Below, one piece after another: positions 36,730 through 37,362 of a DNA stretch of 42,602 nucleotides. A program made the translations under genes and the position numbers. Numbering within the stretch: the stretch's first letter is position 1; each line of letters opens with the position of its first letter. The stretch is from an uncultured Lachnospiraceae bacterium (GTDB lineage Bacteria > Bacillota > Clostridia > Lachnospirales > Lachnospiraceae), in the NCBI GenBank assembly GCA_910579865.1, contig CAJTXA010000028.1, positions 462 to 43,063 of the forward strand, read 5' to 3'. The notes under the pieces were generated by a model. That model had not been told where the DNA came from and did no database searches. It was given only the letters and a program-made list of their open reading frames with translations.

Positions 36730-36854
36730 TGAAGAGTGGGTGGATTCGAACCACCAAATCTTTACGAAGCCCCTATGTATGTAAATGCTGTTTGAGACTT
36801 TTACAAGTCTCTTTCATACTATCTGCTGCCTATCCCATTTTGGCTACACTCTTC
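36730..36854 (-). ncRNA. tRNA-like ncRNA D (divergent copy; 8-bp acceptor-like stem, D-arm, insert, canonical T-arm)
   Basis: On the minus strand, 5' GAAGAGTG pairs with 3' CACTCTTC. D-arm TAGCCAAAATGGGATAGGC (GG in the loop). T-arm GGTGG-TTCGAAT-CCACC. The ~70-nt internal insert contains the hairpin GAGACTTGTAAAAGTCTC and the motif AAACAGCAT. Confidence 0.45.
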
Positions 36855-36962
36855 TCTAAAAATAAGAAAAAGACTACAAAATTGTATCTTTCTAGTCTCA
36901 TTTTGTTACCCTCTAATCGTGAAAGTTATTTTACGCTGTTTGAGACTATTCTTATTTTTAAA

Positions 36963-37073
36963 CAGGGACGACAGGAATTGAACCTGTGACACTATGAGGT
37001 ATTAAAGATTTGCTGTTCGTGTTTTTCTAAACACATTTGTTTCATATGCTCTACCCATCTGAGCTACGTCCCT
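36963..37073 (-). ncRNA. tRNA-like ncRNA C (111 nt; Y-RNA/YrlA-like tRNA mimic candidate)
   Basis: Acceptor stem AGGGACG/CGTCCCT with discriminator G. The D-arm GCTCAGATGGGTAGAGC is canonical. T-arm ACAGG-TTCAATT-CCTGT. Between the D-arm and T-arm lie ~60 nt (normally ~23) containing the hairpin GTGTT-TAGAAAA-AACAC and the motif GAACAGCAAATC. Confidence 0.5.
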
Positions 37074-37108
37074 TTTTATTTTTAACTTCTATTATTTACT
37101 TACAAAAA

Positions 37109-37248
37109 TAGGGATGACAGGAATTGAACCTGTGATCGAATAAACATTAGGATTTGAACCTATTACTCAAAAGAGTCGCCAAAAATTTGCTGTCTGCGTT
37201 TTTCTAAACACATCTGTTTATTTGCTTTCCCCACTAAGCTACATCCCT
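37109..37248 (-). ncRNA. tRNA-like ncRNA B (140 nt; contains an extra internal T-arm-like hairpin)
   Basis: Acceptor stem AGGGATG/CATCCCT with discriminator A. D-arm GCTTAGTGGGGAAAGC. Hairpin GTGTT-TAGAAAA-AACGC followed by AGACAGCAAAT. An additional hairpin AGG-TTCAAAT-CCT resembles a T-arm. The terminal T-arm is ACAGG-TTCAATT-CCTGT. Confidence 0.5.
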
Positions 37249-37265
37249 TTCTATCCTATTTCAAA

Positions 37266-37362
37266 CGGGGACGGTAGGATTCGAACCCACGAATTTACAA
37301 AATATTGCTGTCTATGTCTTTCTAGACATAATTCTTTTGCTCTACCACTAAGCTACGTCCCC
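37266..37362 (-). ncRNA. tRNA-like ncRNA A (97 nt)
   Basis: Perfect 7-bp acceptor stem GGGGACG/CGTCCCC with discriminator G. D-arm GCTTAGTGGTAGAGC. Hairpin ATGTC-TAGAAAG-GACAT followed by AGACAGCAATATT. T-arm GTGGG-TTCGAAT-CCTAC. Its 5' end is 12 nt after the rhaM stop. Confidence 0.5.

Follow-up and report, generated by a model that had tools for sequence, protein, structure and literature searches.

tRNA-shaped RNAs with a conserved helix-and-box module as probable Y-RNA-like partners of a Ro60-like DUF2828 protein

An array of four tRNA-like elements lies just ahead of a gene for a predicted Ro60-like protein in an uncultured Lachnospiraceae bacterium (GenBank assembly GCA_910579865.1, contig CAJTXA010000028.1, positions 462 to 43,063). 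The whole stretch of 42,602 nucleotides (nt) is called the window here, and window positions are used throughout; the four elements, named A to D, and the downstream gene are all on the minus strand. By analogy, the array is probably a set of Y-RNA-like partner RNAs of the downstream protein, the counterpart of the YrlA-type Y RNAs. The elements belong to a large family of tRNA-shaped non-coding RNAs that has apparently not been described so far. It counts about 300 copies in 160 related loci, all of them on the same strand as a DUF2828/DUF7788 gene and nearly always a short way upstream of it. A short module, a helix followed by a single-stranded box, is the sole element retained in all three forms of these RNAs, namely the tRNA-like form, a circularly permuted YrlA-like form and a mini form.

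The RNA array and its family

The related loci, labelled L001 to L173 with positions given after a colon, form a genomic and a viral set. The genomic set holds 80 loci with protein homologs 48-72% identical, mostly from Lachnospiraceae and other Clostridia, with some from Spirochaetes, Bacteroidales, Elusimicrobia, Victivallales and Absconditabacterales. The viral set holds 80 IMG/VR loci with homologs 51-66% identical, on contigs mostly of 60-190 kb. A covariance model built from 61 elements, R1, gave 186 hits in 583 kb (the 80 genomic homologs plus 3 phage loci), and all 186 are on the gene strand; about 135 of them reach at least 53 bits, nearly all no more than 1.3 kb upstream of the gene. 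On the IMG/VR loci the model gave 168 hits with E < 1e-6, all on the gene strand, upstream and within about 1.2 kb. Independently of the model, a hairpin of at least 6 bp with the box was found at 187 places on the gene strand of the 80 homologous loci, compared with 29 on the opposite strand and 25 in shuffled sequence, and simple motif scans show T-loops and ACAGCA boxes piling up upstream of the gene. At least one module lies near the gene in 76 of the 80 genomic loci.

The linkage between gene and array spans Firmicutes, Spirochaetes, Bacteroidales, Elusimicrobia and phages of Actinobacteria, Proteobacteria and Firmicutes. Arrays reach five or more units and include mini units, and in L057, L063, L065, L076 and the mycobacteriophage locus L081 the units are found downstream of the gene. 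The family is absent from Rfam 15, and a permissive cmscan (E <= 10) of 36500-37600 returned only tRNA, weak YrlA and noise. A literature search, with Burroughs & Aravind 2016 and Sim et al. 2020 outside its reach, found no description of the RNA family.

In the window, an earlier reading of the letters alone, referred to here as the sequence-only reading, had recognized four tRNA-like elements, each with a hairpin and an ACAGCA(A/U) box, and all four are indeed present on the minus strand. Its dimensions for the hairpin, stems of 5-6 bp with loops of 7-8 nt, are replaced by stems of 7-8 bp and loops of 4 nt, with the box starting at most 2 nt after the hairpin. Element A (37266-37362, 97 nt) combines an acceptor stem of 7 bp with a D arm, the module and a T arm, its anticodon hairpin being gone; it scores 47.6 bits with the Rfam tRNA model and 77.1 bits with R1, and its fold has a z-score of -4.1. 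Its module (37305-37331, box at 37305-37311) reads UUAUGUCU-agaa-AGACAUAG-ACAGCAA. Element C (36963-37073, 111 nt; Rfam tRNA 51.0 bits, R1 83.3 bits) holds the module UGUGUUU-agaa-AAACACG-a-ACAGCAA (37010-37035) within an anticodon stem UAUGA/UCAUA. Element D (36731-36855, about 123 nt; R1 74.5 bits) has an acceptor stem of 8 bp, a D stem GCC/GGC, the module GAGACUU-guaa-AAGUCUC-aa-ACAGCAU (36785-36811) and a T arm, and its subtype also occurs at L001:2469-2590, L002:1149-1270 and L015:2772-2887.

Element B (37109-37248, 140 nt; Rfam tRNA 50.5 bits, R1 66.0 bits) is more elaborate. A long stem, AAUAAACA/UGUUUAUU, stands at the anticodon position, and in the minimum free energy structure it surrounds the module UGUGUUU-agaa-AAACGCA-g-ACAGCAA (37187-37212), a small hairpin and a second T-arm-like hairpin. 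The long stem differs from that of the ortholog L001:1978-2134, AAUAAAUG/CAUUUAUU, by two compensatory changes. The second T-arm-like hairpin, UAGGUUCAAAUCCUA, had been pointed out before; it is present at 37148-37162 on the minus strand and is kept in the same ortholog.

Elements A, B and C exceed the gathering score of the Rfam tRNA model (RF00005), 29 bits, with a cloverleaf, and in that alignment 38-74 nt take the place of the 7-nt anticodon loop; element D goes unreported by the model. ARAGORN, which permits introns in the anticodon loop, calls none of the four as tRNA, and no anticodon hairpin was found in the folds of A and C. By the anticodon criterion, the elements are not functional tRNAs. 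CCA is not encoded in any of them, and each is followed by a U-rich trailer. The only canonical tRNA of the window, tRNA-Leu(CAA) at 8696-8778 on the minus strand, served as a control and scores 59.6 bits with the Rfam tRNA model and 31.7 bits with R1. A search for further module copies elsewhere in the window gave none that convinced, and a promoter and terminator scan of the array gave the same counts as in shuffles.

The spacer between C and D had been taken for a degenerate fifth copy. Related sequence is there, although it is an intact mini unit plus the stump of another rather than a decayed tRNA-like copy. The intact unit (36893-36948, minus strand) is of the open-helix form, UAGUCUCA-a-ACAGCGU-N32-UGAGACUA; its two ends pair as an 8-bp long-range module helix, the tRNA body is absent, and it aligns with orthologous units at L001:2336-2397 and L002:995-1050. 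The stump (about 36858-36892, minus strand) reads AAAGAUAC...GUAGUCUUU with the box and interior deleted, and alignment places the corresponding unit, intact, in the two closest genomes (L001:2398-2457 and L002:1059-1128).

A covarying module in three connectivities

Covariation was measured on a structure-blind MAFFT alignment of the 61 elements, with a consensus from RNAalifold. This consensus consists of the acceptor stem, the D stem, the module hairpin and the T stem. Paired cells make up 96.3% against 70.8% in shuffles, and cells in which both partners changed number 345 against 87. The covariation score is 0.718, compared with 0.21 in shuffles (0 of 500 reached the observed score) and 0.10-0.16 in slid controls. 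The tRNA-derived scaffold that the sequence-only reading had proposed is borne out by the covariation of the acceptor, D and T stems. The same holds for its view of the hairpin and ACAGCAA box as a conserved non-tRNA insert, as the hairpin covaries and the box is conserved across homologs. Compensatory changes are seen in all seven pairs of the module hairpin, for example AU29/UA14/CG5/GC5 and UA30/CG17. Two tRNA pairs next to the insert also covary, 27:43 (CG21/GC17/UA8/AU3) and 28:42 (GC19/UA11/CG9/AU6), which puts the insertion point of the module on the 5' side of the anticodon stem, behind nucleotide 28. The scaffold thus comprises the acceptor, D and T arms plus the first two anticodon-stem pairs, with the tRNA tertiary-position nucleotides preserved. 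The module itself is a helix of 6-8 bp, then a single-stranded RCAGCAA, then U-rich sequence; at its far end the helix keeps the pattern U-A, U-A, G..A in capped and open forms alike.

In many relatives the remainder of the anticodon arm forms a separate small hairpin 3' of the box, as in L011:2478 (CG|insert|GAC-AUGAUAA-GUCCG) and L010:2681 (GG|insert|GGA-CUUAUAA-UCCCC). A 7-nt loop with U33 and A37 (C32 U33 NNN A37 A38) is kept in about a third of distinct elements; one count gave anticodon-like loops in 56 of 124 elements, against 11% of shuffles, and another in 72 of 212. The sequence-only reading would have been refuted by homologs that keep a canonical anticodon arm but not the hairpin and box, and on this point the outcome is mixed: the homologs do keep the hairpin and box, and about a third of them have a canonical-looking anticodon hairpin as well. 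The triplets in these loops are varied (GUU, GCA, UUU, UCU, GUC, CUU, UGU and others) and differ between otherwise orthologous elements. In orthologs of the 'GGGCUAUAGCUCAG' subtype the loop is constantly C-U-NNN-A-A and the triplets are UAU, UCU, CUU, GUU, CCU and GAU, all ending in U36. U36 is the context of tRNAs modified to N6-threonylcarbamoyladenosine at position 37 (t6A37). The variation of the triplet in this subtype could reflect drift or diversifying selection.

The module hairpin had itself been read as carrying a GAA anticodon-like triplet preceded by A33, and the scaffold as derived from tRNA-Phe(GAA). Reading the hairpin loop as an anticodon had to be abandoned: its letters vary freely among homologs (GACA, GUCA, GAUA, GCAA, GUAA and others), and the loop does not exist in the permuted and mini forms. 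For these reasons a tRNA-Phe(GAA) origin is unsupported, and no evidence for it was found; the genuine anticodon-like loops sit in the separate hairpin 3' of the box.

The three forms differ in how one module is connected. In the tRNA-like form, that of the window elements and of most gut loci, the 7-bp acceptor stem is open and the module helix is capped by a 4-nt loop. In the other two forms, permuted and mini, the RNA begins with one strand of this helix and ends with the other. Mini units have the order 5'-AAAG-strand-N-ACAGCAA-(small hairpin, often anticodon-like)-strand-CUUG-3'. They occur in many loci (L072, L078, L061, L006 and L001 are examples), often in tandem and joined by G-NN-A. 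The permuted units contain the whole tRNA body in the order 5'-helix-box-(anticodon hairpin)-T arm-acceptor 3' strand-loop-acceptor 5' strand-D arm-helix-3', with the acceptor stem closed by a loop and the module helix open. They were found at L063:1725-1853 and L057:4559-4703 and in phages: Enterococcus phage ZJGS4 (L082:1945-2066 and 2130-2247), a mycobacteriophage (L081:4019-4140), Bacillus phage Nate (L092:752-873) and Felixounavirus KhF3 (L089:5388-5513). A loose scan for open helices was noisy, with 355 matches on the gene strand, 182 on the opposite strand and 148 in shuffled sequence, and only those open-helix units were accepted whose helix has 7 bp or more, whose box matches the ACAGCAA type exactly and whose ends bear the AAG.../...CUUG signature. 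The Rfam YrlA model matches exactly the permuted units, but their scores, 35.7-47.8 bits, stay under its gathering score of 69; the best score in the family is that of L082:2145-2266, 47.8 bits.

The neighbouring protein and the likeness to Ro60-YrlA

The gene downstream of the array begins 62 nt after element D. It occupies 35106-36668 on the minus strand, an open reading frame (ORF) of 520 codons for a protein of about 515-520 amino acids (aa) with the Pfam domains DUF2828 and DUF7788; the protein also matches PHROG 850, 'RNA-binding protein'. An AlphaFold2 model (predicted local distance difference test, pLDDT, 73; predicted template-modelling score, pTM, 0.67) has a helical N-terminal domain and an alpha/beta C-terminal vWA domain with a MIDAS motif, DGSGS, at residue 307. 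Foldseek against the PDB gave four hits at E <= 1e-3, all TROVE/Ro60 structures with full-length coverage: 9kop (7e-8), 9l5y (Ro60 of phage phiLo), 1yvr (Xenopus Ro) and 2nvo (Deinococcus Rsr). The two domains by which Ro60 is defined, a helical-repeat domain and a C-terminal vWA domain with a MIDAS, are both present in the predicted fold. On this model, the window protein is a Ro60-fold paralogue that sequence methods leave unlinked to Ro60. Mycobacteriophage homologs are annotated as 'Ro-like RNA binding protein'. A literature search with the terms DUF2828, DUF7788 and Ro-like found no description of the function of the protein or of an RNA partner. An assignment of the window protein to anti-phage defence was tried and dropped, as PADLOC yields nothing meaningful for it.

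The protein family is large, with more than 7,900 clusters matched in a protein search. By tblastn, 710 deposited phage genomes encode a homolog, among them FelixO1-like, Listeria P100-like, Staphylococcus, Campylobacter and mycobacterial phages. Across 251 Felixounavirus records, FelixO1 included, DUF2828 counts as a core gene. In phages, the gene adjoins a tRNA cluster: 16 tRNAs lie downstream of it in KhF3, 19 upstream in Nate and 4 upstream in ZJGS4, and the helix-plus-ACAGCAA units sit in unannotated gaps between the tRNA genes. A related case is gp130 of the Felixounavirus Bas63, which is structurally Ro60-like and encoded directly upstream of phage tRNAs (PhageMaP preprint, PMC11482910). 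It counters the Ppl defence, improves the growth of T7 when moved into that phage, and is active when expressed alone from a plasmid or from T7 (PMC11482910). The authors of that preprint speculate that some of the neighbouring tRNA genes are Y RNAs (PMC11482910). The gene order is the same as for the DUF2828 gene in Felixounavirus KhF3. Unlike the preprint, which describes no RNA motif, the present analysis points to unannotated units between the tRNAs as candidate partners, not to the annotated tRNAs.

Of the known systems, Ro60 (Rsr) with YrlA (RF02553) is the closest in its likely working. In both, a Ro60-fold gene is accompanied by at least one tRNA-like non-coding RNA that has D and T arms, phage members exist, and the helix on the protein side joins the tRNA-like domain at the position of the anticodon arm. 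The phage units and those of L063 and L057 share the exact connectivity of YrlA: paired ends, T arm, closed acceptor stem-loop and D arm. In contrast to YrlA, the ends of A to D form an acceptor stem, and only in the mini unit and in the relatives from phages do the ends pair at the module helix. Connectivity in the window and in most gut loci is that of an ordinary tRNA, and arrays run to five or more units, mini units among them. The protein here is DUF2828/DUF7788 in Pfam and not TROVE. The system probably resembles Ro60-YrlA in working, yet it lies outside YrlA by Rfam score and motif and outside TROVE by sequence. Two YrlA hits were seen in the window, at 37020-37160 and 37201-37315 on the minus strand (26.7 and 23.7 bits), each running from the T arm of one element to the D arm of the next; such an artefact is to be expected of tandem tRNA-like units, but the acceptor and helix strands of A/B and B/C could also cross-pair.

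Two other RNAs invite comparison. With tRNA (RF00005) the elements share the acceptor, D and T arms, the conserved D-loop and T-loop nucleotides and the pairs 27:43 and 28:42, but the 38-74 nt inserted in the anticodon arm are their most conserved sequence, and a usable anticodon loop is gone in A, C and most relatives. With transfer-messenger RNA (tmRNA) they share a functional insert that takes the place of the anticodon arm in a tRNA-like domain, and natural circular permutation, as in two-piece tmRNA. Unlike tmRNA, they are much shorter, have no tag reading frame or pseudoknots, and stand beside a Ro60-like protein instead of SmpB; ARAGORN reports no tmRNA, and the Rfam model tmRNA_permuted reaches only 13 bits (E = 4).

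If the array does encode Y-RNA-like partners, it is probably transcribed with the DUF2828 gene or just ahead of it. The tRNA-like units would be released by the normal tRNA-end enzymes, because their 7-bp acceptor stems are intact, CCA is not encoded and the trailers are U-rich. Ro60 binds Y RNA on the surface of its ring and RNA 3' tails in the central cavity. The helix and box would likewise form the docking site, with the helix contacting the surface of the protein and the single-stranded box bound inside the ring or close to it. The idea that the box is a candidate protein-binding site was already part of the sequence-only reading and is still the best one, with the module common to every RNA form beside the Ro60-fold gene. 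The tRNA-like body and, in about a third of copies, the anticodon-like hairpin would mimic tRNA toward a tRNA-binding enzyme or nuclease. The likely arena is a tRNA- or RNA-centred conflict between phage and host, or RNA quality control, since the relatives are mostly in phages beside tRNA clusters and the Felixounavirus Ro60-like protein counters a defence.

Several points speak against this reading. The RNP (ribonucleoprotein) is inferred from gene neighbourhood and analogy. The structural model is moderately confident (pLDDT 73), with template-modelling (TM) scores of 0.34-0.46 to Ro60. Pfam yields DUF2828 and DUF7788 and no TROVE match (PF05731), and neither phmmer nor a family profile found any hit among PDB sequences, that is, no sequence similarity to Ro60. 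Where the Ro60-binding stem of YrlA, formed from the 5' and 3' ends, carries GNCGAAN0-1G (Chen et al. 2014, PMC4201824), these RNAs have RCAGCAA 3' of the helix; GNCGAAN0-1G is absent from the minus strand of 36669-37375. YrlA scores are 24-48 bits against the gathering score of 69. Elements A, B and C are alike enough in their helices and acceptor stems for neighbouring units to cross-pair as well, and KVP40 and a few genomic loci have no clear module. As for Bas63, gp130 is very likely a DUF2828 ortholog, judging by gene position and description, and it may not need its own RNAs for its anti-defence activity, a caution for models in which the RNA is obligatory.

Three other explanations compete with partner RNAs. 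It is highly unlikely that the elements are real tRNA genes interrupted by a novel intervening sequence, whose removal would give working tRNAs and whose neighbour protein would be processing machinery or unrelated. The intact acceptor, D and T arms with their preserved tertiary-position nucleotides and the Rfam tRNA scores of 46-51 bits fit such genes. So do the roughly one third of elements that keep the C32-U33-NNN-A37-A38 loop on a stem continuing 27:43 and 28:42; cutting the insert out after nucleotide 28 restores a 5-bp anticodon stem in, for example, L011:2478 and L010:2681. However, in A, in C and in the majority of the family no anticodon hairpin is left that could be restored, the mini units are modules without a tRNA body, and the permuted units, with their closed acceptor stem, could not be charged. 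ARAGORN, for all its tolerance of anticodon-loop introns, calls none of them, neither a splicing endonuclease nor a ligase is a regular neighbour of the locus, and it is the supposed intron that is most conserved, not the supposed product.

We also regard it as improbable that the array is a cis-acting leader of the DUF2828 mRNA, with modules serving as operator sites through which the protein, or else tRNA-related signals, would control translation or stability of the message, and not as free partner RNAs. A leader would explain why the units share the strand of the gene and mostly lie no farther than 1.3 kb upstream of it, why no terminator-like site occurs in the window between D and the start codon 62 nt away, and why mini units are often nearest the start codon (L072, L078 and L001:2912-2971). 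It does not suit the units downstream of the gene (L057, L063, L065, L076, L081) or scattered among tRNA genes (KhF3 L089, Nate L092). Covarying 7-bp acceptor stems and T arms, moreover, suit RNase P and RNase Z and argue for release as separate RNAs, and in the Ro60 precedent the Y RNAs encoded beside the gene act in trans (PMC4201824). Little probability, too, is given to the helix and box being a processing or stability signal of polycistronic tRNA-cluster transcripts, a site for an RNase or chaperone, with the DUF2828 linkage arising from shared phage tRNA regions. Phage modules do lie in the gaps between ordinary tRNA genes, and the junction CUUG|NN|AAAG of tandem mini units resembles a cleavage site. 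Against this, ordinary tRNAs are not nearby in the window and in most bacterial loci, where array and gene are together anyway, and the link is to the gene, its strand and about 1 kb, across all the bacterial groups and the phages of three phyla named above.

Genomic surroundings and significance

The genes around the array offer no sign of a prophage: a prophage context for the window was considered and rejected, as the flanking genes are metabolic (rhaM, an aldo-keto reductase, a hydrogenase) or without assignment, and none is phage-like. Upstream of the array on the minus strand lie a 371-aa ORF (37796-38911; PADLOC PDC-M03A, 7.8e-10), a NUDIX protein gene (39299-39757; PADLOC PDC-S07, 9.5e-15) and an 851-aa ORF (39799-42354) with no significant match in Pfam, NCBIfam, PADLOC or PHROG. 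The two PADLOC models matched are candidate-defence models, and the genes upstream of the array may form a small defence island beside the Ro60-like cassette. Near the DUF2828 gene of Listeria phage P200 are tRNAs, a ligase of the RtcB type and a ROOL-like RNA. The ROOL match of this phage (RF03087; L090:968-1519, plus strand; 86 bits, E = 7e-16, gathering score 99.1) lies between the phage tRNAs and the DUF2828 gene, and the RtcB-type RNA ligase is about 1.3 kb downstream of that gene. In Mycobacterium phage Wamburgrxpress, the 'Ro-like RNA binding protein' gene is preceded, at a distance of about 0.9 kb, by a gene for a band-7-like membrane protein (L081:694-1572).

A bolder version of the partner-RNA reading may be put forward tentatively. 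The RNAs might be parts of a modular 'tRNA-display' particle, in which a fixed helix and RCAGCAA handle, in three connectivities, carries tRNA bodies or bare anticodon stem-loops as decoy, sensor or shield in a fight between phages and bacteria over tRNA cleavage or modification. Were this true, each locus would carry a small repertoire of differing anticodon-like loops. The siting by phage tRNA clusters and RtcB, the variable triplets in orthologous units and the Felixounavirus anti-defence activity would then be explained.

A covarying RNA partner with a short conserved box gives the DUF2828 family a hypothesis, that of a second, Ro60-like RNP lineage. Y-type tRNA mimicry would be extended to a form that retains the tRNA's own ends, and a single RNA family is seen to undergo circular permutation in nature. 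Present annotation misses these loci or calls them odd or pseudo tRNAs.

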